Below, piece after piece: positions 3,480 through 49,080 of a DNA stretch of 64,000 bases; the stretch's first letter is position 1; each line of letters opens with the position of its first letter. The position numbers were made by a program, and so were the translations under genes. Location: the IMG/VR virus record IMGVR_UViG_3300011429_000001, positions 15,962-79,961 of that record. One strand, 5' to 3'. Source of the stretch: a virus. The notes beneath the pieces were generated by a model. The model ran no database searches. It saw only the letters and a program-made list of their open reading frames with translations, and had not been told where the DNA came from.

Positions 3480-3920
3480 TTACACCATCCGCTCTAGGTT
3501 GAGATCCTTCGCGAGGTCGGCCGGGAGCGTCGAAACGGCCGCCATCAGCGGGCGTTCGAGATATTTCGGTCCGGTGCCGCTCGGCGAGAACGTCACCTGC
3601 ACGCCTTGCCACGATGGCGGCGAGTATTTCGACGGGTGCTCGTGGACCGCGAGCGCGTAGGCCGCGGCGGCGCCGCCGTAGCTTAGTTCGACGGTTACCT
3701 GTCGGCCGAGGTAGTACGGCGGCGAGACCTGCCCGCTGTTCTTCAGGGTCGAGAGATCGACCGGGACGTAGTTCTCCTTCGAGTCGGCCATGATTCGCTG
3801 CGCGCGGCGATACAGCGCACCGGCGACCATCGTGCCGAACTTCGCCTCAAGCGCCAGCAACCTCTTCGTGATGCCGTCGCCGGTGAACTTCCCCTTCGAG
3901 TCCCTACCCGTTATCGCCAT
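3480..3920 (-). CDS. HK97 gp10-like neck protein
   Basis: ADSKENYVPVDLSTLKNSG...YALAVHE...GPKYLERP motifs. Confidence 0.8.
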   Translation of the reverse strand: MAITGRDSKGKFTGDGITKRLLALEAKFGTMVAGALYRRAQRIMADSKENYVPVDLSTLKNSGQVSPPYYLGRQVTVELSYGGAAAAYALAVHEHPSKYSPPSWQGVQVTFSPSGTGPKYLERPLMAAVSTLPADLAKDLNLERMV

Positions 3921-4107
3921 CGGACCTCACGCTCGTGACGCCGCACTCGAACGCCGCCGCGACTTCGTTAAGCCGCGCCGCGACCGCCGGTTCTTCGTCG
4001 ATCGCGACCTCGCGGATCAACGCGGCGACCTCTCGACGGATGTCGGCCATCAACTCCGGCATCGACGTGATCGAGAGCTCGCCGCGTACCGGTTCGCGTG
4101 TATCCAT
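3904..4107 (-). CDS. Hypothetical protein
   Basis: 67 aa ORF coupled to neighbours. Confidence 0.6.
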   Translation of the reverse strand: MDTREPVRGELSITSMPELMADIRREVAALIREVAIDEEPAVAARLNEVAAAFECGVTSVRSDGDNG

Positions 4108-27113: not shown

Positions 27114-27532
27114 TGGCTAGCCGCCACCTTCGGCATGCGGAGGACGCAGATGTCGAGCGTGACCTCGGTGTGCTGGCCGATGATGCTCGCGCGGACCGTC
27201 ATCGCGCCGTCCTGATTCGTCGTGATATCGCCGTCGTAGACCGGCGTCGTCCCGTCGGCGCGATAGAGCCGGAACCACTTCGGCTTACCCTCCGCCTGTG
27301 CGTCCCGGTCCGGCACGACGGCGTTCGCCGTCGCGACGCCGTCGACTGGCGGCATGAACGCGGGACGCGCGAACTGAAGTTTGGCGAGGAGCGTCGCCGT
27401 GCGCGGGATCGCGGCGTCTCCGGTCGACGGCCGCGGGCCGTCGAAGATGCACGCGTAACCGCCGTCGAGGAGCTCGCAGATGGCGGCGCAGGCGGCGTTG
27501 GCCGCCAACGTCGAGAGTGTGATCTTGCTCAT
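27110..27532 (-). CDS. Putative virion structural protein
   Basis: LDGGYACIFDGPRP...LLAKL...GKPKWFRLYRADG...DGDI pattern seen in phage structural genes. Confidence 0.65.
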   Translation of the reverse strand: MSKITLSTLAANAACAAICELLDGGYACIFDGPRPSTGDAAIPRTATLLAKLQFARPAFMPPVDGVATANAVVPDRDAQAEGKPKWFRLYRADGTTPVYDGDITTNQDGAMTVRASIIGQHTEVTLDICVLRMPKVAASQ

Positions 27533-29112
27533 TCGTCGACCTCCTCGACTTGGATGCTGTCGGCGCGACCGCGCGGGTCACGACGAATGGTCAGCGAGCG
27601 GCGGCCCTTCTTCTTCGCCTTCGGTGGCCGAGCGCGTTCGGCGGCCAGTTGGAGCTTCGCCTCCCGCAACCGCGCCGCGAGTTGCTGCGCGTCGGCGACG
27701 TCCGGCATCGCGACGAGCTCGTCTTCTTCCAGTGGGTCGTAGTCGAGGATGTTGTCGCGGATCTCGTTCGTCGTTATGATCTGCTCGCCCTGATCCGCGT
27801 TCGCCTTCGCGGCCTTCGCCGCGAGGTCGAGGCGCTCCGAGAGGTCGAGGTCCTGCACGTCTGGCCAGCGCACCTCGTAGCTCTCGGGCGTCGGCGGGAG
27901 TTGCCCGAGGAGCTGGAGGCGCTCGACGAGCGGCCGCAGGATGACCGACTCGGCGAACTGTCGGCGCCGGTCGCGGATGTTCTGCCCCCAGTTGCCGCGG
28001 TCCTGCGAGCTCGCGAGGTCTCCCATCTCGCTGCCCATGAAGATGCGCTTTGGGATGCCGTATGGCGTCACGATCAACGAGATGAGCGCATCGATCTGCC
28101 GGTCGAACTGCGCGACGTCGCTGCTGCCGACCTCGTCGAGCTTCACGCCGGAGAGGCGGACCCATCGACGAAGGCCGTGCACCAGCTTGTCGATCTCCTC
28201 CTCGATGAGGGCCTCGTCGCCGGTCTTCAGCACCGTGCCCGGGTCGAGGGCGGCGGCGAGCATCGGCTGGACGCGGCGCCAGAACGCCTCGGACCCGGCG
28301 CCCGCGACCTTTTCGAGATCGTCGAGCCAGTTCCAGACGCTCGCGAGCATCGGCTCGCCCCACTCGTCCTCCTCGACCGCCTCGTCGGCGATGTGGATGA
28401 CGCGATTCCAGTGAACGAACTGCGAGCCCGACGTGCCGTTCGACTTCAACAGCTTCGTAAACTGGTAGCGACTCGGTTGCCCGAACCGCGGCGAGAGCCG
28501 GTCGTTGTCGAGGTCGCCGTCCTGCACCTTGACGCGGAGCTCGCTGAACTGCTTGATGTAGGCGACGCTCCCGGGCTTCGTCTTCTTCGCCTCGCCGCCG
28601 AGCGCGCCAGGGTAGCCGAGGAGGAGGACCGAGAAGCGACCGAGCTGCGACAGGATGTCGCCCTTCCGCATCCGGTCCCACGCGCGCGTCCGCGCCGCGA
28701 ACTCGATCCACGCGGCCTCGAACGGCGTCACGATGTCGACGTTGTCGTCCTGGACGAGGTCTGCGCCGGAGCGCCACGTCGCGTTCGGGAGCGCGTTCAC
28801 CAAGCGGCGCGCGACGCCGTTCCGGCGGTAGCGATCCCAGTAGAGCTCCGGCGTGATCGTCCTCGTATAGCCGAGCGCGGTGTAGTAATCGCGCTTGCCC
28901 TCGAACCCGAAGCCGTGGAGGCTCGCGAACGAGAGCCGGTCGTGGATCGCGCCGAGTTGCTTCAGGACTGCTTGCGCTTCGGCGGTCGAGAACCGCGGAT
29001 CCTTGTTCCCCTTCGGCACGACCTCGATCGCGGTGGTGGTGGCGGACGCTGCTGCTGCGGGTATCGTCGCGCGCGTTGTCGTGCGGCGACGCTGCGTCGT
29101 CCTCTTGGCCAT
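27529..29112 (-). CDS. Portal protein (DUF1073 type)
   Basis: YRRNGVARRLV...FIHWNRVIH-like HWNRVIH...GIPKRIFMGSEMGDLASSQD; immediately after TerL. Confidence 0.9.
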   Translation of the reverse strand: MAKRTTQRRRTTTRATIPAAAASATTTAIEVVPKGNKDPRFSTAEAQAVLKQLGAIHDRLSFASLHGFGFEGKRDYYTALGYTRTITPELYWDRYRRNGVARRLVNALPNATWRSGADLVQDDNVDIVTPFEAAWIEFAARTRAWDRMRKGDILSQLGRFSVLLLGYPGALGGEAKKTKPGSVAYIKQFSELRVKVQDGDLDNDRLSPRFGQPSRYQFTKLLKSNGTSGSQFVHWNRVIHIADEAVEEDEWGEPMLASVWNWLDDLEKVAGAGSEAFWRRVQPMLAAALDPGTVLKTGDEALIEEEIDKLVHGLRRWVRLSGVKLDEVGSSDVAQFDRQIDALISLIVTPYGIPKRIFMGSEMGDLASSQDRGNWGQNIRDRRRQFAESVILRPLVERLQLLGQLPPTPESYEVRWPDVQDLDLSERLDLAAKAAKANADQGEQIITTNEIRDNILDYDPLEEDELVAMPDVADAQQLAARLREAKLQLAAERARPPKAKKKGRRSLTIRRDPRGRADSIQVEEVDE

Positions 29113-29118
29113 GTGTGT

Positions 29119-30804
29119 TTACCTTCTCGGTTGCGCCTTCGCGTTGCGCGCGCCGCCCCAGACACCGGCGACCGGCTTCTCGGGCTCGACCTCGCGCTCT
29201 TCTATGCCCGCATATATTACCCCCTCGCCGCGATCCGGCGAGCGTCCGATGCGTTTCTTGATATCTTCCTTCGACTCGACGCGGATGCCGCGGACGGTCA
29301 TCTCGAAGCGCGCGGCCGTTAGGTCGGCGCGCATCTGCGGGTCCGGCGGGAGCGCGACGTTGTGACCCTTCGACGGGTCGAGGAGCTCGCGCATACCCCA
29401 GTGCCACTTCGCGCGTTTGTTGACGAAGCGGATCTCGCCGGTCGAGTCCGTCGACTCCGTACCGTGCCCGCCGTGTAGCCCGATGACCTTCTTGTAGCCG
29501 AGGCCGACCAGCGAGTCCTTCGTCGACGCGCCCTCGGAGTCGGAGTCGATCTGAACGCGGACGTCCTTGTTCGGGACGTGCGTCGCGACGTGCTGCGCGC
29601 CCTCGGGTCCGGTCCTCATCCCGGTCGACCGCTGCGCGACCGGCTCGGCGAACCACGGGCCGTATCGCTTCACGATGACGAACTCGTCGCCGCCGCCCCA
29701 CGACGGGTCGATGCCGACCTGCGTCAGCGGCCAGCTTCCGGCGCCGTCCTCGGTCCACCGTGCCTGCGCCTTCAGGACCCAGTCCGTCGGAATTACCTGA
29801 CGCGGGTGATCTTGAATCGACGCGCCGAAGTTACCTGAGCCCAAATTCCGGAACCCTCCCGAGAGGCCGCCGAGCACCCTCGCGTAGCCGGTCCGCATGT
29901 ATGTCGGGTTGTCCTCTACCGACGATGGGATGAAGGTCCGACTCCGCGGCCAGGCGATTCTACCGCCGCACTCGGGACACTTCATCGGGTTACTCGTCAC
30001 GTCGTGCTTGCACTTCGGGTTGTCGCCGCCGAAGACGATCGCCTGCGGTCGACCGGCGCCGAACTTCGGACCCGGGATCTCGATGTCGACGTCGTTGTCG
30101 TCTGTGACGAACCAGCGGAGCTCGCCCGGCCCGGCAGGGTTCGGATGTCGAAGGTCGAGCCACGGTGCCCAGTAGCGGATGACCCACTCGCCCTCGGACG
30201 TCAGCGGCGGGTTGCCGGTACCGACGACGCGCGTGCGCTGTCCCTCGCGCGACGTGCGCAGCCACGCGATGAGGAGTCGATACGCGCCCTCTGGAATCTC
30301 TGGGATCTCGTCGAAGGCCTTCAGGTCGTGCGGTCGGCCGGACCACTTCAACCACTCGGAGATCGTCGCGCCGGTCTGACCGAACTCCAACTTGCGAGCG
30401 CCGGGCAGCCGCTCGAACATGTGCTTGTTCTGGTTGTAGCGGTCGCGGAGGCCGACCATCTCTTGCGCGACCGCGATGAGGCCCTCGGCGCCGGAGAACT
30501 GCGTGAACTCGCGGCGGAAGATGATCGAGTTCTTGTGCTTCGTCATCGCGAGGCCGAGCGCGAGCTGCGACTTGCCGCCGCCCGGGCCGCCGCCGAAGAA
30601 GAGCTCGTCGGCGAACGACTCGATCGCGAGCTCCTGAGGCGAGAGCACGCGGCCGTCCGGCATGTCGAAGCCGCGGCCCGGTTGTGCGGCGAGCGGCGTC
30701 CAGATCGGCGCAGCGTCGACGGCCGACGCGCCCGCGTCTTCGAGCTCTTGGATCGCCGCGCGCACCGCTTCGTGGAGCGGCGCCGCCGCTTGTCGTCTCG
30801 CCAT
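29119..30804 (-). CDS. Terminase large subunit
   Basis: Walker A FFGGGPGGGKS, Walker B KAFDEI, GTGNPP, nuclease GIDPSWGGGD and SPDRGE. Confidence 0.95.
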   Translation of the reverse strand: MARRQAAAPLHEAVRAAIQELEDAGASAVDAAPIWTPLAAQPGRGFDMPDGRVLSPQELAIESFADELFFGGGPGGGKSQLALGLAMTKHKNSIIFRREFTQFSGAEGLIAVAQEMVGLRDRYNQNKHMFERLPGARKLEFGQTGATISEWLKWSGRPHDLKAFDEIPEIPEGAYRLLIAWLRTSREGQRTRVVGTGNPPLTSEGEWVIRYWAPWLDLRHPNPAGPGELRWFVTDDNDVDIEIPGPKFGAGRPQAIVFGGDNPKCKHDVTSNPMKCPECGGRIAWPRSRTFIPSSVEDNPTYMRTGYARVLGGLSGGFRNLGSGNFGASIQDHPRQVIPTDWVLKAQARWTEDGAGSWPLTQVGIDPSWGGGDEFVIVKRYGPWFAEPVAQRSTGMRTGPEGAQHVATHVPNKDVRVQIDSDSEGASTKDSLVGLGYKKVIGLHGGHGTESTDSTGEIRFVNKRAKWHWGMRELLDPSKGHNVALPPDPQMRADLTAARFEMTVRGIRVESKEDIKKRIGRSPDRGEGVIYAGIEEREVEPEKPVAGVWGGARNAKAQPRR

Positions 30805-41462: not shown

Positions 41463-42200
41463 CTAGGTCCCGGTCTCCCGCTCAGGCGTGACGTCGATGG
41501 CGTCGAGGACGCCGAACCGCTTCTTGAGCGCCGCCGCGAGCGCCGTCCGGATCTCTGGCATCGACGCCGTGATGCCGATGATGTCGCCGACGAGGGCCGA
41601 GACGATCGACGCGACCTGCGACGTCGGGACGTAGCCCGCGTCAGGCTGCTGGTCGACGCCGAGGAGCTTCCTGCGGCTCTCGCCGTTCCGCCGGAGCTGC
41701 GACGCCGCGTCGAGCCGGAGGCGCGCGAGCGGCTCGGCCTTCACCGGGACGGTAACGGTCCGCTGCTTCTTCCCGCTCCCGACCTTGACCCTGTCGCCAG
41801 CGACCTCGCCGCGGGCGACGGGAAGGAGCTGGCGGTCTAGCTGGTCGAGGCGCGCGAGCTCCATCTGTAGCCAGTGCTGCTGCGTCTGGACGGTCTCGCG
41901 CGTCGTCTCGTCGGCCATCTCGTGGATGTCCTTGCAGACCGTCTTCGCCGTGCAGGGCATCTTGTTCGCCGAGAGGTAGTCGGCGATGGCCTGCATCGTC
42001 ATCCGCTCGTAGACGTAGAGGTGCCAGGCGAGCTTCTTCCGTTCGCGGCGCGCGGCCTCTTGGGTCGCCTCGGCCTTGTTCCCGCCTGTCGGCGTCAGCG
42101 GGCCTGGCGCCGTCCGACCGGGTCGGCGCTTTCCGGCTTTAGCATTACCGGGCTTGCGGCCGCGCTTCTTCTTCGTTACGGGACGAGTCCTCCGCGTCAT
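41463..42200 (-). CDS. Terminase small subunit-like HTH protein
   Basis: AWHLY...TMQAIADYL...TVCKDI HTH; ELARLDQL; RRKLLGVDQ. Confidence 0.75.
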   Translation of the reverse strand: MTRRTRPVTKKKRGRKPGNAKAGKRRPGRTAPGPLTPTGGNKAEATQEAARRERKKLAWHLYVYERMTMQAIADYLSANKMPCTAKTVCKDIHEMADETTRETVQTQQHWLQMELARLDQLDRQLLPVARGEVAGDRVKVGSGKKQRTVTVPVKAEPLARLRLDAASQLRRNGESRRKLLGVDQQPDAGYVPTSQVASIVSALVGDIIGITASMPEIRTALAAALKKRFGVLDAIDVTPERETGT

Positions 42201-42490
42201 CGCGGGTCCTTCACGCCGAGGATCTCCCGGCGAACGATGTCGCTGTCGATGAGCTCGCCGAGCTCGACGCCGGAGACCATCCGCTTGCCGTAGGTCCGGC
42301 CGTCCTTCCGGCAGGTATACCAGCTGCGCTCGTAGGCCTCGACGTCGCCGTCGAATCGGCGCGCGAGGACCCGCAGCGCGGTCGAGAGCTTGATGTCCCG
42401 AATCTTGGCGAGAGCTTCGAGCCGCCGTCTGGTCTCCTCGGGGAGCAGGCGCCAGCGCACGCGGTCGGCCTTCCTGAGCTTACCGGCCAT
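42197..42490 (-). CDS. Array paralog (UBA/RHH-like module)
   Basis: RVRWRLLPEE...LEALAK...ALRVLARRFDGDVE. Confidence 0.7.
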   Translation of the reverse strand: MAGKLRKADRVRWRLLPEETRRRLEALAKIRDIKLSTALRVLARRFDGDVEAYERSWYTCRKDGRTYGKRMVSGVELGELIDSDIVRREILGVKDPR

Positions 42491-42692
42491 GGCGGCCCTC
42501 CGGATCGTAGGTCGCGACGAGGCCCTGCGGACCGGCGACGTCGATGCGCTTCCGGCCGTCGAGCGCGTCCTGTTCGATCGCCGCGGCGAGCGCCTTCGCC
42601 GTCGACGTGCCAGCGAGCTTCCCGAGCCGCCGGATGACCGGTCGGAACCACGCCGGGACGAAGCGCATCCGGACCCTATCGGCTCGCGTCAT
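42480..42692 (-). CDS. Array paralog (RHH-like)
   Basis: GGAGGAG RBS; ADRVRMRFVP...LGKLAGTSTAKALAAAI. Confidence 0.65.
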   Translation of the reverse strand: MTRADRVRMRFVPAWFRPVIRRLGKLAGTSTAKALAAAIEQDALDGRKRIDVAGPQGLVATYDPEGRHGR

Positions 42693-42966
42693 CGACGCTC
42701 CTCCGGATGAAGTCAAGGAACCCTGGCTCTTCATCGCACTGGACGTCGTGCTCCGACGGACCGAGGACTACCTTGATGGCCGCCACGGCGCGCTGCTTCC
42801 GCCACGCGTTGTAGAGGATGTTGAACCGCTCGACGCTCCCGTCGCACATAACGAGCCCTTCGACGATGGTCTCGCGCGAGAAGATGCGGAGCGGCCACGC
42901 CTGTTCGACGACCTCCTTGCAGGTCGCCTCGACGAGACGACGGCGGACGGTCTCTGCTTGCGTCAC
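42676..42966 (-). CDS. Array paralog
   Basis: VRRRLVEA...EGLVMCDGSVERF; GTGA start. Confidence 0.65.
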   Translation of the reverse strand: MTQAETVRRRLVEATCKEVVEQAWPLRIFSRETIVEGLVMCDGSVERFNILYNAWRKQRAVAAIKVVLGPSEHDVQCDEEPGFLDFIRRSVDDASR

Positions 42967-43328
42967 GTCTTGCCCTTCTTGCGGAGCCGGTCGACGGTCT
43001 GCGCGGCGCGGAACTTCCGCGAGGCGTAGGGTCCGATCGACGCGATGGTGTTCCGCAGCTCGCCGGTGTCGATCGGCGTCCGCTGCTTCGTCTCCTCGAA
43101 GAGCTTCGCTGCGAGGTGTTCCAGTGCGGTTTCGAGTTTCTTCACCGTCGCCTCGACGTCGCCGCCGTCCTTCACGATGAAGTAGGCCGCCATCTCGGTG
43201 TCGCCGCCGAGCATCTGCGCGACCCTGGCGACTTCGGCCGGGCGCGCCGCGGTGAGCACGCGGATGGCGACGCGCGTCTCCTGCGACATTATGAGGACTT
43301 CGCCCTTCGCGCGGAGCTCGACCTTCAC
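42963..43328 (-). CDS. Array paralog with gp10-like tail motif
   Basis: VAQMLGG...KDGGDVEA; PIDTGELRNTI. Confidence 0.65.
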   Translation of the reverse strand: MKVELRAKGEVLIMSQETRVAIRVLTAARPAEVARVAQMLGGDTEMAAYFIVKDGGDVEATVKKLETALEHLAAKLFEETKQRTPIDTGELRNTIASIGPYASRKFRAAQTVDRLRKKGKT

Positions 43329-43804
43329 GGGAGTCCTTCCGGCCCGACGCATCGACAGTTCGGATGCGGCTCGACCTTCGGCGGAACATGGTCGCGATAG
43401 AGTTGCCCGGCGTCTCCGTCGTAGCGTTCGGCGAGCAACGTCAGCGCCTCGTCGAGCGTGATGTTGCCGAGGTCGACGGTCAGGCCGACCGTGTTCTTCT
43501 GAAGCCCGGAGAGCAATCGCCAGCGGACGGCGTTCTCCTTCGACACTTCCAGTGGTACACCGTTCGTGCGTCGGATGCGTTCGAGCAAGCGGGCGCACTT
43601 CGGTCTGTTCTCGAACCGCGTGCGATCGAAGGCGACGCCGTCGACGGCCGCGAGGATGAGCTCGACGTCGCCGTCGGCGAGGAGCAACGCCTCGATCGCG
43701 ACGTCGCTCGGGATCCCATGGTCGTTCTGGAGGCGATCGATCAACGGCTTGTTCGACGTTTCAAGGAGGCGGCGTCGGACGAGGTAGGGCGAGGTGCCGC
43801 TCAT
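43325..43804 (-). CDS. Array paralog, two modules, MuF-like tail motif
   Basis: VRRRLLE...EALLLADGDVE; VRWRLL...YDGDAG; PHPNCRC. Confidence 0.7.
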   Translation of the reverse strand: MSGTSPYLVRRRLLETSNKPLIDRLQNDHGIPSDVAIEALLLADGDVELILAAVDGVAFDRTRFENRPKCARLLERIRRTNGVPLEVSKENAVRWRLLSGLQKNTVGLTVDLGNITLDEALTLLAERYDGDAGQLYRDHVPPKVEPHPNCRCVGPEGLP

Positions 43805-44157
43805 GGCTTCTCCTGTCCGGTTAGCGCGAAGTGAACGTCTGCGAGGTAGGCCGGGAACTGCCGGTCGCCGGAGATGAGGCGGTCGGCGACGGCGCGCTCG
43901 GCGATCTCGGTGTTCGTTCCATCCGACGCGAGCTTACTCGGCCAGCCATTCGGCGGGTTCTTCCGCGACTCCTTCACGATGTTGTAGATGGCAGCGGCGC
44001 GGAACTCGTCGACGTCTCCGTTGTAGTCATGGACCAACGCGCGAACGGCGCGGCGCATCGGTAAGTCGCAGATCTCGCATACGAGGTGGACCGTCCGCTG
44101 CGCCCGCGGCGGAAGTAGTCTGAACGCGGCGTCGGCCGCGGCGCCTCGGAGCTTCAC
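43801..44157 (-). CDS. Array paralog
   Basis: FRLLP...RALVHDYNGDVDEF. Confidence 0.65.
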   Translation of the reverse strand: MKLRGAAADAAFRLLPPRAQRTVHLVCEICDLPMRRAVRALVHDYNGDVDEFRAAAIYNIVKESRKNPPNGWPSKLASDGTNTEIAERAVADRLISGDRQFPAYLADVHFALTGQEKP

Positions 44158-44408
44158 GATCGGATCCTCTTCTTCGCGTAGGTGACGAAGTCCTCGTAGC
44201 CACCGCCGACGCTACCGCCGCCCCACGCCGCGAAGAGGTCGAGGATCCGCATCGGCGGGTCCGGGTAGCCGTCGGCGAGTCGAACGAGGTCGACGATCAA
44301 CGACCGGTGTAGGTGCGTCTTCGCGTGCACGAGGCTGACGCCTTGACAGAAGGCCGCCTCGACGAGTCTCCGGCGCACGCGCTCGACGCGTCGCTCCTCC
44401 TGCGTCAC
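44154..44408 (-). CDS. Array paralog with C5-MTase motif-I-like tail
   Basis: VRRRLVEA...LADG; MRILDLFAAWGGGSVG. Confidence 0.65.
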   Translation of the reverse strand: MTQEERRVERVRRRLVEAAFCQGVSLVHAKTHLHRSLIVDLVRLADGYPDPPMRILDLFAAWGGGSVGGGYEDFVTYAKKRIRS

Positions 44409-44680
44409 AGTCTACGCTCCTTGATGAAGTCCATCAAGTGACGAGTCGCGCCGGGCGTACTCGCGCCAGGTCGTTTACCGGCGCCGAGCTCGTCGAGACG
44501 GAGCCATGCGTCGATCGCTCGGCCGAACCGCGCGCGGTCTCCGCCGACGGCGATCAGGATGTCGGCCGTGTCGTCCGGTTCCCAACCTACGACCGAGCGA
44601 CAGTGGTCGATCACGTCGCCGAAGTTCGCATACATAAGGCGACGACGGAGGCGGACCGCCGGAGAGAAGATGGCGGTCAT
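44405..44680 (-). CDS. Array paralog
   Basis: LRRRLM...VVGWEPD...VGGDRARF; ATGA start. Confidence 0.65.
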   Translation of the reverse strand: MTAIFSPAVRLRRRLMYANFGDVIDHCRSVVGWEPDDTADILIAVGGDRARFGRAIDAWLRLDELGAGKRPGASTPGATRHLMDFIKERRL

Positions 44681-45186
44681 AGCTTCGGCAGCGGTCGACG
44701 CCGTAGGTGCGTGATGAAGTCGGCGACCGGGCCGTGCTGTTTTCGCTTCGGGTCGACCCACTTCGCGAACTCGATCTGGAACTCCTCTGGGCTGCCGCAG
44801 AGTTCGAGGCACGTCACGATCTCGTTCTCCGGCCAATACTTCTCGACGCGCGCTGCGATGAAGTCCGCGTAGTTCGATCGGATCATCCGGCGCCGGACCT
44901 CCTTCGCGCGCGCCAGTTCCCGATCGCGCTCAGCGTGAAGCGCGGAGAGGAAGGACCGGAGCGCGTCGTGCCCGCGGCCGACGTCCGACGGCGGTACGTT
45001 CAGTGCCGCGATCCATTCCTTATGCGAGGCGCGGAGCCTCTCGACGTCGCCGTCGCAGACGAGGAGCATCTCGACGATGCTCTCCTTGTCCCAGCCCATC
45101 GTCTCGTGGAGCTCGTCGATGTATCGCCGGTGGATGGTCTCGACGAGCCGACGCGAGACGGCGCCTGCAGGGTTCGCGAACTTCAC
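44677..45186 (-). CDS. Array paralog, two modules
   Basis: SRRLVE...IDELHETMGWDKESIVEMLLVCDGDVERL; VRRRMI...CLELCGSPEEF. Confidence 0.7.
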   Translation of the reverse strand: MKFANPAGAVSRRLVETIHRRYIDELHETMGWDKESIVEMLLVCDGDVERLRASHKEWIAALNVPPSDVGRGHDALRSFLSALHAERDRELARAKEVRRRMIRSNYADFIAARVEKYWPENEIVTCLELCGSPEEFQIEFAKWVDPKRKQHGPVADFITHLRRRPLPKL

Positions 45187-45551
45187 GGCGTCGCCTCAGG
45201 AGTTGTTAACCGGTTAACGTCGACGCCCGCTCGGTCGAGCAAGGCGTAGCAGTCGAAGAGGAACGGTGCGCGGGCCATCCCGGCAGGGTCGGAGGCGATG
45301 CCGCGCGAGCGGCCGTAGACCTTTCGCCGCTGCGTCAACGACATCAGTCGTAGGATGTGCCCGAGCGCGATGCCGCAGCGGTCCTTGACCTTCGTCGCTT
45401 CGGCGATGCAGAAGTCGATGTGCCCGTCGTCCATGTTTCCGTCGTCGAGCGCGATGTGGAGCGGGCCGCCGTTCTCGTTGCCTTCCATCATGTAGTAGGC
45501 GTCCGAGAGGTAGACGACGTCTGGCACGGTCGGTCGCTTCGGGTTCTTCAT
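45183..45551 (-). CDS. Hypothetical protein embedded in the array (different family)
   Basis: GGPLHIALDDGN motif; lacks the array module. Confidence 0.65.
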   Translation of the reverse strand: MKNPKRPTVPDVVYLSDAYYMMEGNENGGPLHIALDDGNMDDGHIDFCIAEATKVKDRCGIALGHILRLMSLTQRRKVYGRSRGIASDPAGMARAPFLFDCYALLDRAGVDVNRLTTPEATP

Positions 45552-45865
45552 CGCTTCAACCGTTGGCCCATATCCATTCCGGCGAACCGGATCGCGTTCG
45601 AGACGAGGTCCCGCTCGTAGCTCGCGAGTACGCTCCGCTTCTGAACGTCGCGCGGGAACCGCGTCTTGATGGCGCTATACGCGCGCTGGATCGCCTCGCG
45701 CGTGCGTCCCTTGTATTGGAGGCACGCCACGAAGATCAGCGCGGCCGAGTTAAGTCCGATCTGGTAGTTGTTCGCGAGCTCGCGCACGAACTTGTCTTGC
45801 TCTAAGAGCCGGGCCTTGACGCGCCAGACCTCGTGGACGTCGACGGTCGACGTTATGCGGGACAC
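45548..45865 (-). CDS. Array paralog (divergent)
   Basis: VKARLLE...VRELANNYQIG...CLQYKG. Confidence 0.55.
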   Translation of the reverse strand: MSRITSTVDVHEVWRVKARLLEQDKFVRELANNYQIGLNSAALIFVACLQYKGRTREAIQRAYSAIKTRFPRDVQKRSVLASYERDLVSNAIRFAGMDMGQRLKR

Positions 45866-46176
45866 GACTCGGCCTTCTGCGCCTCGCGCACTTCGATCAT
45901 GTGAAGGACTAGCATCTCGGGGAAGCCGTTCCACTTCTCGCCGCTCGTGAAGATGCGCGCGACCCACGGAGGGTCGTCATCCATCGCGCGCTTGAGCGCG
46001 TACTCCGCGACGGCGACGTCGCCCTCGAAGACGGCGAGGACAAGGGCCGCGGTCGGCCGCCGGTAGTCGTCGGCCATCTCGTGAAGGATCCGCGCGAGCG
46101 TCTCGACGCCTTCAGGGTTCGCGCTCGCGACGAGCGCCGCCTGAACCTCAAGCACCCGCGCGTTTACGATACGCAC
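45853..46176 (-). CDS. Array paralog
   Basis: VQAALV...LVLAVFEGDVAVAE. Confidence 0.65.
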   Translation of the reverse strand: MRIVNARVLEVQAALVASANPEGVETLARILHEMADDYRRPTAALVLAVFEGDVAVAEYALKRAMDDDPPWVARIFTSGEKWNGFPEMLVLHMIEVREAQKAESCPA

Positions 46177-46517
46177 GTCACGACTCCGAGGTTGCGTGGC
46201 GCGACGACCTCGGCGCCGTAGTTCGAGATGCGATAGCGGAGCGCGTCGGCGGCGTCCTTCGCGTAGAGGCTTTTGCCGCCGCCCGGATTACCGCCGAATA
46301 GCATCGCTGCCTCACTGGTCTTCACCAGGTTGTCCGCGACGTCCTTCATCGCGCTCTCGATCGACGCCTCGGCGGCCTCGACGTTCCAGCCGTGAGCTTG
46401 GGCGAGCGCCATTACGACGCCCGCCGGGATCCGCGTGCGCTCCGAGACGACGCGAACCTCCGCGGCGATCAGCGCGCGGCGAACGACGTCGAGAGGATCC
46501 TCTGGTTGCTGCTTCAT
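46164..46517 (-). CDS. Array paralog with TerL Walker-A-like tail
   Basis: VRRALI..EVRVVSERTRIP...AHGWNVEAAE; LFGGNPGGGKS. Confidence 0.7.
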   Translation of the reverse strand: MKQQPEDPLDVVRRALIAAEVRVVSERTRIPAGVVMALAQAHGWNVEAAEASIESAMKDVADNLVKTSEAAMLFGGNPGGGKSLYAKDAADALRYRISNYGAEVVAPRNLGVVTCVS

Positions 46518-46536: not shown

Positions 46537-46758
46537 TCACTCTACGTTGATGTTCTCCGCGCGCGGTCCCTTGGCTCCGTGGCCGGACTCGTAGGTGACG
46601 CGGTCGCCTTCGTTGACGTCGCTGAAGGTCGCGTTCTGAAGCGCGGTGTGATGGAAGAAGATCTCGTCGCCGCCGCCCTCCGGCTCGATGAAGCCGAAGC
46701 CCTTCCGCTTACCGGTTGCCTTGTCGACGACGATGGTCTTGATCTTGCCTGCTGCCAT
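46537..46758 (-). CDS. cspA: Cold-shock domain protein
   Basis: KGFGFI (RNP1), IFFHHTAL (RNP2), EGDRVTYE...KGPRAENI. Confidence 0.95.
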   Translation of the reverse strand: MAAGKIKTIVVDKATGKRKGFGFIEPEGGGDEIFFHHTALQNATFSDVNEGDRVTYESGHGAKGPRAENINVE

Positions 46759-46781: not shown

Positions 46782-48197
46782 TCACGAATTATAACCGCCG
46801 CCGTAGCCGCTGTACTGCGGTCCGGGATCGCCGTCGGCCTCCGGCATCACGGCGAGGTTCGCCCACCGCGCTTGCTCCGAGATGAACGCGAGCTTCACCG
46901 TGCCGACCGGGCCGCCGCGGTTCTTCGCGATGATGACCTCCGCGATCCCTTGGACGGCCTCGTCGTTCGGCGTATACATTTCCTGTCGGAACAACAGCAT
47001 CACGAGGTCGGCGTCGAACTCCAACGCGCCGGACTCGCGGAGGTCCGATAGGTGCGGGCGCTTGTCGTTGCGCTTCTCGGCGTCGCGGCCGAGCGCGGCG
47101 ACGGCGACCATCGCGATGTCCTCGTGCTTCGCGAGCGTCTTTAAGCCGCGCGAGATCGTCGCGACCTCCTGCTGTCGATCCCTCGCCGCCGGGTTCCCCA
47201 TCAACTGGAGGTAGTCGAGGAAGAGGAGCCGGACGCCGTACTTGTCGCGCAGCCGACGCGCCCACGCCGAGAGTTGCGTCAGCGTGTTCGCCGAGCTCAC
47301 GAAGTAGAGCGGCCGGTCGGCGAGCTTCCCGATCGCCGCCGTCACCTGCGCCCATCCACGCTCGTCGACGAGGCGACGACGGACGCGGTCCGGTGAGACC
47401 TTCGAGTGCGCGGCGACGAGGTTCCCAGCGAGCGTCTCGTCGTCCATCTCCAGCGTAATGTAGCCGACCGGTTCGTTGCGAGCGGTGACGAGGTCGGCGA
47501 TCGACGTGATGAGGCTGCTCTTACCGACGCTCGGCCGCGCCGCGACGATCGACAACTTCTTGCGCTCGAAGCCGCCGACCATGCTGTCGACGTCGGTGAG
47601 GCCGGTCAGAATGCCGGGCGCCTTGTCGGAGACCAGCGTATCGGTATACGACTTCAGTGCATCGTTGAGCGACCGCTCGCCGACCGCACCAGTGTCGGCG
47701 AGCTTCAGCAACGCGTTGACGCCTTCCTCGATGACGAGGTTGGCCGACTGGTCCGCCTCGTACGCGGCGCCGAGCAAGCGATTGGCTGCGAAGATGGCGA
47801 GCCGCAGCCGCGACTTCTCGCGCACGACCTCGCAGTAGTAGACGACGTTCGTCGAGCGCGGCACGCCGTCGACGAGGGAGGCGAGGTAGGCCGGGCCGCC
47901 GACTTCTTCGAGGTCGCCTTCCTGTTCGAGATCCTCCTTGAGGAGCACGAGGTCGAGTGGCTTGCTCGCCTGCGCCAACCGCTCCAGCCCGCGGAAGATG
48001 CGCTTGTGCGCGTCGCGGAAGAAGTCGTCGGCCGTCACGAGGAGCGCGATGTCCGTCCACGTCGAGTTCTCGATCATCGCCGCGCCGAAGATGCTGCGCT
48101 CGGCTTCGAGGTTGTACGGCAACGTCCGCTGTTGCGCCGCGTCGTGCGGCGGCGGGTCCGGGCGCGGATCGTCTTTTACTTCTGCTGCGTCGGCCAC
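46782..48197 (-). CDS. dnaB: Replicative DNA helicase
   Basis: LPYNLEAERS; AARPSVGKS; LDYLQLM; RPHLSDLRESGALEFDAD; KNRGGP; true start is the GTG at 48197. Confidence 0.96.
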   Translation of the reverse strand: MADAAEVKDDPRPDPPPHDAAQQRTLPYNLEAERSIFGAAMIENSTWTDIALLVTADDFFRDAHKRIFRGLERLAQASKPLDLVLLKEDLEQEGDLEEVGGPAYLASLVDGVPRSTNVVYYCEVVREKSRLRLAIFAANRLLGAAYEADQSANLVIEEGVNALLKLADTGAVGERSLNDALKSYTDTLVSDKAPGILTGLTDVDSMVGGFERKKLSIVAARPSVGKSSLITSIADLVTARNEPVGYITLEMDDETLAGNLVAAHSKVSPDRVRRRLVDERGWAQVTAAIGKLADRPLYFVSSANTLTQLSAWARRLRDKYGVRLLFLDYLQLMGNPAARDRQQEVATISRGLKTLAKHEDIAMVAVAALGRDAEKRNDKRPHLSDLRESGALEFDADLVMLLFRQEMYTPNDEAVQGIAEVIIAKNRGGPVGTVKLAFISEQARWANLAVMPEADGDPGPQYSGYGGGYNS

Positions 48198-48529
48198 TCG
48201 ATGATCTCCGGTGCGCGTTTCCGCGGGCGCCAAATGTGGAGCTCGCGTCGACAATGCTTCGACCACTTCACTTCGCCGAACGCCTTCTCTGCGTCCTTTA
48301 TCAGCGTCGCCGTCGGCTTGCCTCCGCCCTTCGTCTGGACGAAGACCGGTACGTCGACCGCGAGGTAGAGGAGGTCGCTGCCGAATTGATCCTTCTTCGT
48401 CGTGAAGACGCCGTTCGGCGTGTGGTTCGTTCGGACGATCTCCATGTCGGCGACCGGGTGGCCGCGTTCGAGGAGCCAGTCCTTGCTTCGCTTCTTGTAG
48501 TAGGCGCCGCGCGAGGAGTTGCTCGACAC
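48176..48529 (-). CDS. PD-(D/E)xK nuclease, Holliday-junction-resolvase-like
   Basis: RGAYY...WL...DQFGSDLL...FVQTK. Confidence 0.7.
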   Translation of the reverse strand: MSSNSSRGAYYKKRSKDWLLERGHPVADMEIVRTNHTPNGVFTTKKDQFGSDLLYLAVDVPVFVQTKGGGKPTATLIKDAEKAFGEVKWSKHCRRELHIWRPRKRAPEIIEWPTQQK

Positions 48530-49080
48530 TACAACCCCCTGCGCTTCCAGTCGGCGGCGATCTCGTACGCGCCGACCGGCGGCCGACCGAGCGGGCCGCG
48601 CGCAAACACCGATCGTCGAGCTCGACGCACGGCGCCGCGCATAAAGCGGCGCGCCCTAGCGACGTTCGTCGGGTCGTTATACCAGCGATTGATGCCGGAC
48701 GGATGCGGCATCACGACGACGTCGGCCGCGCCGATGCGCCGCTTCGCGAAGTAGACGTCGCGCACGCCGAACGCCGCGGCGGTCCGGTGCCCGAGCAGGA
48801 TGACGAGACGGCCGCGCACGAACTTCGTCGCGAGCCGCTCTGCACCGCGCCTAGCCTCGACCATCGGGAACTGCGCGCCCTTCGAGGCGCCGGGACCGGG
48901 CCACGCGTCGAGCACGTTGGCGCGGGCGAAGAGGCGAAGGAACTCTGTGATGTCGACGCCGCCGAGCGCGGCGAGGATCGACCCGCAGCGACCATCGATC
49001 GGACGGTTCAGCATGCCGGTGCGGTTCGGCGCCTCGCCGATGACGAGCGGGCGCGGCTCAGATTGGGACGGCGTTCGCAT
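48529..49080 (-). CDS. Uracil-DNA glycosylase superfamily protein
   Basis: VIGEAP (motif A), ILLG, MPHPSG (motif B). Confidence 0.82.
   Translation of the reverse strand: MRTPSQSEPRPLVIGEAPNRTGMLNRPIDGRCGSILAALGGVDITEFLRLFARANVLDAWPGPGASKGAQFPMVEARRGAERLATKFVRGRLVILLGHRTAAAFGVRDVYFAKRRIGAADVVVMPHPSGINRWYNDPTNVARARRFMRGAVRRARRSVFARGPLGRPPVGAYEIAADWKRRGL

Follow-up and report, generated by a model that had tools for sequence, protein, structure and literature searches.

A tandem array of diversified small phage proteins built on a shared module with a predicted UBA-like core

Introduction

Why would a phage carry an uninterrupted row of small overlapping genes, most of which encode divergent copies of one protein module? 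This question is raised by IMG/VR virus record IMGVR_UViG_3300011429_000001, a 100,629-bp genome with direct terminal repeats that is rated complete. We analyzed 64,000 nucleotides of it (bases 15962-79961 of the record; hereafter, the window, with positions counted from its first base), in which the tandem array occupies positions 42197-46517 and comprises 13 genes, here named G1 to G13 from the first gene of the operon. A preliminary description, made from the letters alone, had recognized 12 paralogs with 14 copies of a module that looked like either a ubiquitin-associated (UBA) or a ribbon-helix-helix (RHH) domain, and had proposed a rapidly diversifying family of binders. Our analyses support a shared module in at least nine of these genes, predict a five-helix fold for it, and lead us to propose, tentatively, that the array is a diversified panel of nonenzymatic binding proteins used in interaction with the host.

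The array is a single translationally coupled operon

Thirteen consecutive minus-strand open reading frames (ORFs) fill the locus, and the periodicity of G+C content at third codon positions (GC3) follows the frame of each of them in turn. All junctions overlap, by 4 to 17 nt, and 8 of the 12 internal ones have the form ATGA or GTGA; the start codons are our choice, backed by purine runs resembling ribosome-binding sites. The 13 overlapping small ORFs listed previously were thus borne out by the overlaps and the frame signal. The chain extends past G13 into G14 (41463..42200, minus strand, as are all array coordinates below), a conserved, basic 245-aa protein gene that is ATGA-coupled to G13, and we found no promoter-like site or convincing terminator interrupting it. 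Because the junctions overlap, the chain reaches G14, and no such site breaks it, the array is one translationally coupled operon.

At least nine genes carry a shared module

The module spans ∼85 residues and reads V-R-R-R-L, ∼17 residues, G-W, ∼13 residues, (D)G-D, a Trp-bearing helix, a variable linker, and F-L-x-F-V-R. All-versus-all BLASTP recovered the similarity among copies as two groups: a core group, subfamily A, made up of both modules of G5, G6, G7, the first module of G9, and G11, and a second group, subfamily B, made up of the second module of G9, G13, G8, and G12. Subfamily B aligns gap-free to subfamily A, and the ten window copies in the alignment (A1) are nearly gap-free from V-R-R-R-L to (D)G-D. 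MAFFT placed every single-module sequence on the first half of G5 or G9 and gave no balanced two-module alignment. For an unbiased test, we used a per-module hidden Markov model (HMM) built from members in other phages only, leaving out sequences ≥40% identical, with E values computed for a database the size of the genome's 1456 six-frame ORFs.

This model recognized nine genes with 11 copies at E ≤ 2e-3. Both halves of the 169-aa G5 scored highly (first module, ∼aa 1-85, 44932..45186, E = 1.3e-18; second module, ∼aa 86-169, 44677..44931, E = 1.8e-13), as did the single-module proteins G6 (91 aa, 44405..44680, E = 3.3e-13), G7 (84 aa, 44154..44408, E = 7.2e-11), and G11 (96 aa, 42676..42966, E = 2.3e-16), the last of which is the archetypal copy. 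G9 joins a subfamily A module (43565..43804, E = 8.7e-13) to a subfamily B module (43325..43564, E = 3.1e-6). The other subfamily B members are G8 (118 aa, 43801..44157, FRLLPP ... YNGDVDEF, E = 1.9e-3), the short G12 (70 aa, 42480..42692, RVRMRFVP..., E = 6.1e-4), and G13 (97 aa, 42197..42490, RVRWRLLPEE ... RFDGDVEAY, E = 3.3e-9), and G8 also matched G13 by BLASTP (E = 3e-6 in a small database). G10 (121 aa, 42963..43328) has a divergent module (E = 1.3e-4; hhalign P = 5e-5) followed by a C-terminal stretch resembling phage gp10-like proteins.

The remaining four genes lie at the 5′ end. G3 (105 aa, 45548..45865, E = 0.015) is marginal and a probable distant member, its score being reached by 0 of 300 shuffled sequences; G2 (107 aa, 45853..46176, RV..V.A.L ... 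FEGDV, E = 0.09) is marginal or remote, with 3 of 300 shuffles reaching its score; and G1 (117 aa, 46164..46517), the operon's first gene, is not significant (E = 1.6). When their ortholog groups were compared with the family by hhalign, all three aligned in the correct register with P values of 1.6e-4 (G3), 4.6e-4 (G2), and 6e-4 (G1), which makes them possible remote members at most. G4 (122 aa, 45183..45551, E = 180) is unrelated, a lineage-restricted orphan inserted in the array. The earlier count of 12 genes and 14 copies is therefore borne out only in part: G3 and G2 score at the margin, G1 falls short of significance, and G4 does not belong to the family. The shared module itself is real, and the solid count is at least nine genes with 11 copies. 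The two ORFs with two copies proved to be G5 and G9, and the C-terminal helix that had been noticed in many copies is indeed conserved across members as F-x-x-F-(V/I)-R.

Arginine codons in the motif differ between copies (CGC, CGT, CGG, CGA, and AGA), as do the leucine codons, so conservation acts at the protein level; a DNA-level repeat or recombination site was ruled out on the same grounds. The motif was likewise ruled out as a Tat signal, as no hydrophobic h-region follows the arginines. BLASTP and family searches of the rest of the genome found no copy of an array protein and no family member outside the array. Pfam and PHROGs scans of all 13 array proteins gave nothing above threshold, and neither catalytic motifs nor enzyme-family matches were found among them, in line with the earlier impression of an expanded, diversified family; its members are small, nonenzymatic proteins absent from the libraries.

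The module is predicted to form a five-helix bundle

We modeled G11 as a monomer with AlphaFold2 (AF2), using a 47-sequence family alignment (A2), and obtained a mean predicted local distance difference test score (pLDDT) of 88.5 and a predicted template modeling score of 0.77. The model has five helices: helix 1 (residues 3-15), which contains V-R-R-R-L; helix 2 (17-26); helix 3 (31-40); helix 4 (45-58), which bears the conserved Trp; and helix 5 (80-95), which carries F-L-D-F-I-R-R. A short hairpin lies inside the variable linker between helices 4 and 5. G13, the copy that looks most like an RHH protein, was modeled as a monomer with an alignment centered on subfamily B (A5) and has the same four N-terminal helices (core residues 11-60, pLDDT ∼90), with a less certain C-terminal helix. 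In both monomers the N-terminal basic segment is helical (pLDDT 87-94 in G11 and ∼92 in G13) and is predicted to pack on the bundle as a helix instead of forming a strand.

The conserved core hydrophobics are V7, L11, I20, W29, L38, F48, W55, F83, F86, and V87, and the other most conserved columns are R8, R9, R10, H16, D36, G43, D44, and R88. R8 (40 of 47 members) and R10 (42 of 47) flank the hydrophobic stripe of helix 1; in the model, they may be paired with D36 and D44 in salt bridges or else contribute to a shared binding site. At the loop that matches the M-G-F/Y position of UBA domains, 18 of 45 members have G and 37 of 47 have W, F, or I.

Is this a UBA domain? In the AF2 models, helices 2 to 4 superpose on UBA, CUE, and TS-N bundles, and exhaustive VIA alignment of G13 placed UBA, CUE, or UBA-like proteins (Tap, TDP2, Dcn1, Rad23, NBR1, EDD, TNK1, UBAP1, HypK, and EF-Ts) at ∼15 of the top 50 PDB neighbors. 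Sequence profiles gave sub-threshold matches to Pfam UBA_2 (E = 6e-4 for G5; best E = 2.5e-4; 2 of 47 members) and Pfam UBA (E = 0.067; 2 of 47 members), and a PDB profile search gave a mouse UBA domain (1wj7) at E = 0.33. Outside the family, the profile of the ten window copies matched, at E = 2.5e-5, a protein of 473 aa that combines an OTU protease domain with two UBA-like repeats at its C terminus. On the other side, none of the 47 members reaches any Pfam UBA gathering score, and Foldseek searches of the G11 model against the PDB, AFDB clusters, and BFVD found no significant match. In the ESM Atlas, a shape search with G11 was weak and not significant, and feature searches with G11 and with G5 yielded nothing usable. 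The VIA neighbors of G11 include region 2 of ECF sigma factors, AAA+ lid domains, ParB, and PDCD5. The A2 profile ranked designed HEAT-like alphaRep repeats in the PDB (E = 0.007, summed over several weak matches to the repeats) above every UBA chain; the helix-GW-helix-GD pattern is therefore generic in part, and this match counts against a UBA assignment. The UBA-like resemblance claimed earlier is thus partly supported, for the core bundle, and does not establish the module as a member of the UBA superfamily. The module is best described as a predicted new five-helix domain with a UBA-like core.

The models and profiles bear equally on the suggestion that the two 3′-most copies are CopG-like RHH repressors. 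According to this alternative, at least the subfamily B copies (G8, the second module of G9, G12, and G13) would be Arc/MetJ/CopG-type repressors whose R-V-R-W-R-L segment forms the DNA-reading beta-ribbon of a dimer. The spacing of R-V-R-x-R-L-L-P-E-E, helix, G/S turn, and helix does fit, and a ribbon that forms only in an obligate dimer would be invisible to monomer models. However, the segment is helical at pLDDT ∼90 in both AF2 models, no RHH chain appeared in PDB profile searches, and the alignment of subfamily B with subfamily A, whose third and fourth helices are integral to the fold, is gap-free. Neither G12 nor G13 matched any Pfam family at E ≤ 0.1, and the other 42 A2 members, which include 5 further subfamily B relatives, matched no RHH family at E ≤ 1. 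In most members, moreover, Arg occupies the core position that aligns with W. We therefore set aside the CopG/RHH assignment of the 3′ copies as very improbable.

The family is rare and its arrays differ by whole cassettes

An exhaustive HMMER search with a ten-copy profile against 1.84 billion representatives, a database search of the kind suggested in the preliminary description, returned just 38 proteins at E ≤ 1e-3, which with few exceptions are of similar type and 80 to 200 residues long. Besides the OTU protein, the nonmembers are two repetitive proteins rejected as spurious, P0012 (insect allergen repeats) and P0033 (a Ser/Thr-rich wall-type protein). Two related contigs, L009 (97.4 kb) and L010 (13 kb), were reached through orthologs of G5, and contig L012 through a distant member with two modules; runs of members also occur on the short fragments L011, L013, and L014. 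Altogether, the collected modules amount to 97 sequences, which fall into 80 clusters when grouped at 95% identity and 42 when grouped at 50%; single linkage at 40% gives 23 groups. With G14 as the probe, no relative was found in IMG/VR or in 185,579 GTDB genomes, and a metagenome scan found three short loci; the lineage is therefore rare, with no sign of a prophage form. Among cultured phages in INPHARED, a blastn search with the locus matched dnaB only. The family is absent from Pfam and PHROGs, undescribed, very rare, and limited to a single uncommon lineage of phages.

All contigs that extend across the two flanks (the window, L009, L010, and L012) have the gene order DnaB, cold-shock-domain protein (CSP), array, and G14-like gene. 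In the window, the 5′ anchor consists of dnaB, directly upstream of the array (46782-48605; Pfam DnaB_C, 2e-74), and the CSP gene (46537..46758, minus strand; Pfam CSD, 2e-17), whose synteny is kept in the other three contigs, and G14 is the 3′ anchor in all relatives that reach it. G1 is likewise kept at the 5′ end of the L009, L010, and L012 arrays, and G12 has orthologs in L009 and L010. Between these anchors, the window and L009 each have 13 array genes, L010 has 18, and L012 has ∼14, and the cassettes present differ from array to array; the family accounts for ∼4% of the genome in this lineage. The window as a whole has a G+C content of ∼66% and nearly all of its genes on the minus strand. 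The array lies 11 kb from the terminase, portal (27529-29112), and head genes and adjoins replication genes; the large terminase gene is at 29119-30804, and the other recognizable neighbors encode a sliding clamp and SbcC/D-like proteins.

Within the window, nearest paralogs are 25 to 42% identical, the closest pair sharing 42% over 45 aa, so the copies are old and no recent amplification has occurred. Comparison with L010 revealed a mosaic. G1 to G4, G6, G7, and G10 are 87 to 99% identical in protein sequence, with synonymous divergence (dS) of 0.08 to 0.39. G5, G8, the first module of G9, G11, G12, and G13 are 32 to 68% identical, with dS of 0.54 to 0.95 and nonsynonymous-to-synonymous ratios (dN/dS) of 0.27 to 0.95. 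The flanks are 92% identical (G14, dS 0.24 and dN/dS 0.24; CSP, dS 0.51 and dN/dS 0.07). Extreme GC3 bias compresses dS, and these values are comparative only. The higher dS of the divergent cassettes argues for replacement by distant alleles through recombination, not local acceleration, and all array copies are under purifying selection.

L010 also has five extra cassettes relative to the window. At the DNA level, two extra genes lie between G5 and G6 and two between G10 and G11; G13 is replaced by a different gene pair, and the second half of G9 is missing. The halves of G9 stand apart in other phages, the first as 83- to 85-aa genes (P0022 and P0038) and the second as an 87-aa gene (P0016), which identifies G9 as a gene fusion, and the two-module architecture of G5 is conserved across the lineage (in the orthologs P0002 to P0004, and also in P0014). 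The arrays of related phages thus differ by whole-cassette gain, loss, fusion, and replacement. What had been called rapid diversification is, in this sense, turnover of cassettes; the paralogs themselves are old, at no more than 42% identity, and under purifying selection. On other contigs, P0008, P0015, and P0020 carry a second, C-terminal domain of ∼100 aa with its own C-D-G-D or K-G-D-I helix-turn motif and without the VRRRL helix, and these fusions suggest more domain shuffling around the same core.

A candidate panel of host-interaction proteins

What, then, might the array do? We tentatively propose that this lineage-specific multigene family, encoded in a coupled operon between dnaB/csp and the 245-aa gene, supplies a diversified panel of nonenzymatic binding modules that engage host components during takeover or counterdefense. 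Each copy would be a compact five-helix bundle in which the basic N-terminal helix with V-R-R-R-L and the amphipathic C-terminal helix with F-L-x-F-V-R clamp a UBA-like core of three helices (helix, G-W loop, helix, (D)G-D turn, and the helix with the Trp). The conserved residues and the family-specific helices 1 and 5 would serve as a scaffold, and specificity would reside in the linker and the variable surfaces of the helices, which would give each paralog its own target; the fusions G5 and G9 hint at pairing between modules. We favor such a role based on the small size of the proteins, their binder-type fold, their position among nonstructural genes, and a turnover of cassettes such as accessory or arms-race loci typically show. 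The predicted fold also belongs to a type whose main use is the recognition of macromolecules.

Several observations weigh against this proposal. The best-conserved polar residues (R8, R10, D36, D44, and R88) could reflect a ligand common to all copies, for example nucleic acid, and not a scaffold. The dN/dS ratio is below 1 everywhere, with no direct sign of positive selection. A search of the phage for JAB and ThiF/E1 genes found none, and no ubiquitin-pathway genes.

The first of these points leads to an alternative that we consider unlikely, in which the array encodes small DNA- or RNA-binding regulators of middle or late transcription, antitermination, or replication that act through the Arg-rich N-terminal helix and without an RHH ribbon. 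V-R-R-R-L, with R8 and R10 present in most members, is the most conserved element of the module, and the array adjoins dnaB and a cold-shock gene, itself nucleic acid binding. K/R-rich C-terminal tails occur in P0026, P0032, and P0034, and the weak structural neighbors include PDCD5, MerR-like, and ParB helical domains. The isoelectric points (pI) of the array proteins cut both ways: G12 (11.4), G3 (10.5), and G13 (10.3) are very basic, but G9 (5.9), G11 (5.4), and G2 (4.8) are acidic, and with a span of 4.8 to 11.4 the copies are not uniformly like DNA-binding proteins. The motif offers just three arginines, beside a hydrophobic stripe, which may instead be structural partners of D36 and D44, and no helix-turn-helix (HTH) or RHH family rose above noise in the Pfam scan. 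It is also hard to explain why a 100-kb phage would need 10 to 18 distinct regulators.

If the copies were instead to bind one another, they could build a heteromeric phage structure or scaffold, such as an accessory complex for replication or packaging that includes G14. Strict translational coupling through G14 would fix the stoichiometry of such a complex; the fusions of adjacent modules, conserved in G5 and assembled from separate genes in G9, are Rosetta-stone hints of contact; and G1 to G5, G10, and G14 are conserved anchors. A defined complex, however, should not tolerate the gain, loss, or replacement of at least five cassettes between phages with flanks 92 to 99% identical, and we regard this alternative as distinctly improbable.

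Virion-packaged, ejected internal proteins like those of T-even phages, in which the N terminus up to L-x-E would be a capsid-targeting and cleavage signal and the bodies antirestriction cargo, could account for a hypervariable array of small proteins with a common N-terminal motif and for L-[VIL]-E after the arginines in ∼45% of members, but we find them a most implausible explanation, as the motif sits in a confidently folded helix in the AF2 model and is kept internally in G5 and G9, homology covers the whole domain and not a leader alone, and the genes lie away from the head module beside replication genes.

The proposed host-interaction panel also admits a more specific version, for which we see very little likelihood, namely, that the copies are true UBA-type sponges or decoys directed against bacterial ubiquitin-like (Ubl) conjugation defense of the Bil, Bub, or CBASS-Cap2 type, or against another polymorphic host defense protein. 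Each paralog would then neutralize a different host allele, and cassette swaps would track host diversity; if so, phages would have their first described family of Ubl-binding domains. The earlier suggestion that the proteins target EF-Tu or bacterial Ubls gained no support, given that the phage lacks JAB and E1 genes and that the EF-Ts neighbors are weak.

For the host-interaction panel in general, the mosaic of near-identical flanks and cassettes at 32 to 68% identity is a signature of phage-host conflict loci, and the family is therefore a well-delimited set of candidates for host-takeover or counterdefense activities. It is also a new, confidently foldable domain family of ∼85 residues, with 42 clusters at 50% identity. 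The G5 and G9 fusions and the neck-protein-like fusion in G10 are concrete experimental handles, and, if the UBA-like core is functional, the family would link phages to bacterial ubiquitin-like biology.

Other features of the array and flanking genes

Some of the genes have features of their own. The C-terminal stretch of G10 (∼aa 60-101, …TPIDTGELRNT…) resembles the N-terminal motif of neck and tail-completion proteins: it scored 21.3 bits on Pfam HK97-gp10_like (cutoff, 21.4), matched three PHROG "tail completion/Neck1" families (E = 0.01-0.03), and aligned weakly with the phage's own gp10-like protein (3480-3926; 29% identity, E = 0.019). The motif is kept in the G10 orthologs of L009, L010, and L012 and may represent a decoy or a fragment that was recruited.

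G1 contains a glycine-rich, Walker-A-like G-N-P-G-G-G-K-S at aa 75-82 (GxxxxGKS-like), which its orthologs keep as GGGPGGGK(S/Q). Its Pfam matches are limited to weak AAA and T2SSE hits (E = 0.06-0.19), and at 117 aa it is, judging by length, too small to be an NTPase despite the motif. G4 has the conserved motif G-G-P-L-H-I-A-L-D-D-G-N-x-D-D-G-H-I-D-F and just 4 homologs in 5.8 billion clusters, one of them a 78-aa protein on an unrelated 43.8-kb contig.

G14 combines a very basic, Gly/Pro-rich N terminus with an HTH-like segment. It had no match in Pfam or the PDB, and its sole library match was phrog_645, labeled "Rnase E" (E = 1.8e-7). It has the look of a DNA-binding or small-terminase-type protein, yet lies 11 kb from the large terminase gene. 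A distant G14 relative occurs on contig L015 (ERZ1292625…Hain-H41-01um…), whose name points to a 0.1-μm groundwater filtrate and is the only environmental hint for the lineage. The longest ORF for dnaB encodes 607 aa from a TTG start, with an Arg/Pro-rich N-terminal extension of ∼140 aa that is missing from the L009 and L012 orthologs (451 to 467 aa), and the real start is probably internal.

Comparison with known systems

The UBA-like superfamily consists of compact three-helix bundles of ∼40 to 50 residues that bind ubiquitin or Ubls (EF-Tu in the case of TS-N) through the M-G-F/Y loop and helix 3. With these bundles (UBA, CUE, the TS-N domain of EF-Ts, and the NAC C terminus), the array module shares the succession of helix, G-(W/F/I) loop, helix, (D)G-D-V-E turn, and helix. 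Unlike them, it is about twice as long and has additional conserved helices, basic at the N terminus and another at the C terminus, which are predicted to pack on the core. RHH repressors have in common with subfamily B a basic N-terminal segment of alternating Arg and hydrophobic residues and two helices with a G/S turn, but the segment in the array proteins is predicted to be a helix and not a strand, helices 4 and 5 are extra and conserved, and there is no Pfam RHH signal.

The internal-protein loci of T-even phages are polymorphic blocks of small genes whose products share a conserved N-terminal motif. The array resembles them in being a hypervariable block of small genes with an N-terminal motif that often ends in L-x-E. 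It differs in that the whole domain is homologous, that the motif forms a predicted structural helix that also occurs internally, and that the locus lies outside the head module.

In its organization, the array resembles viral multigene families of the "genomic accordion" type, for which segmental amplification of antidefense loci provides a phage example (PMC13096335). Both have head-to-tail paralogs in one operon, with content and copy number varying at a fixed position. The copies described here, however, are ancient, with at most 42% identity, and the arrays have come to differ through cassette exchange, loss, and fusion instead of recent amplification. A tandem, variable multigene family of small orphan phage proteins is of a kind known in principle; the protein family itself is new.

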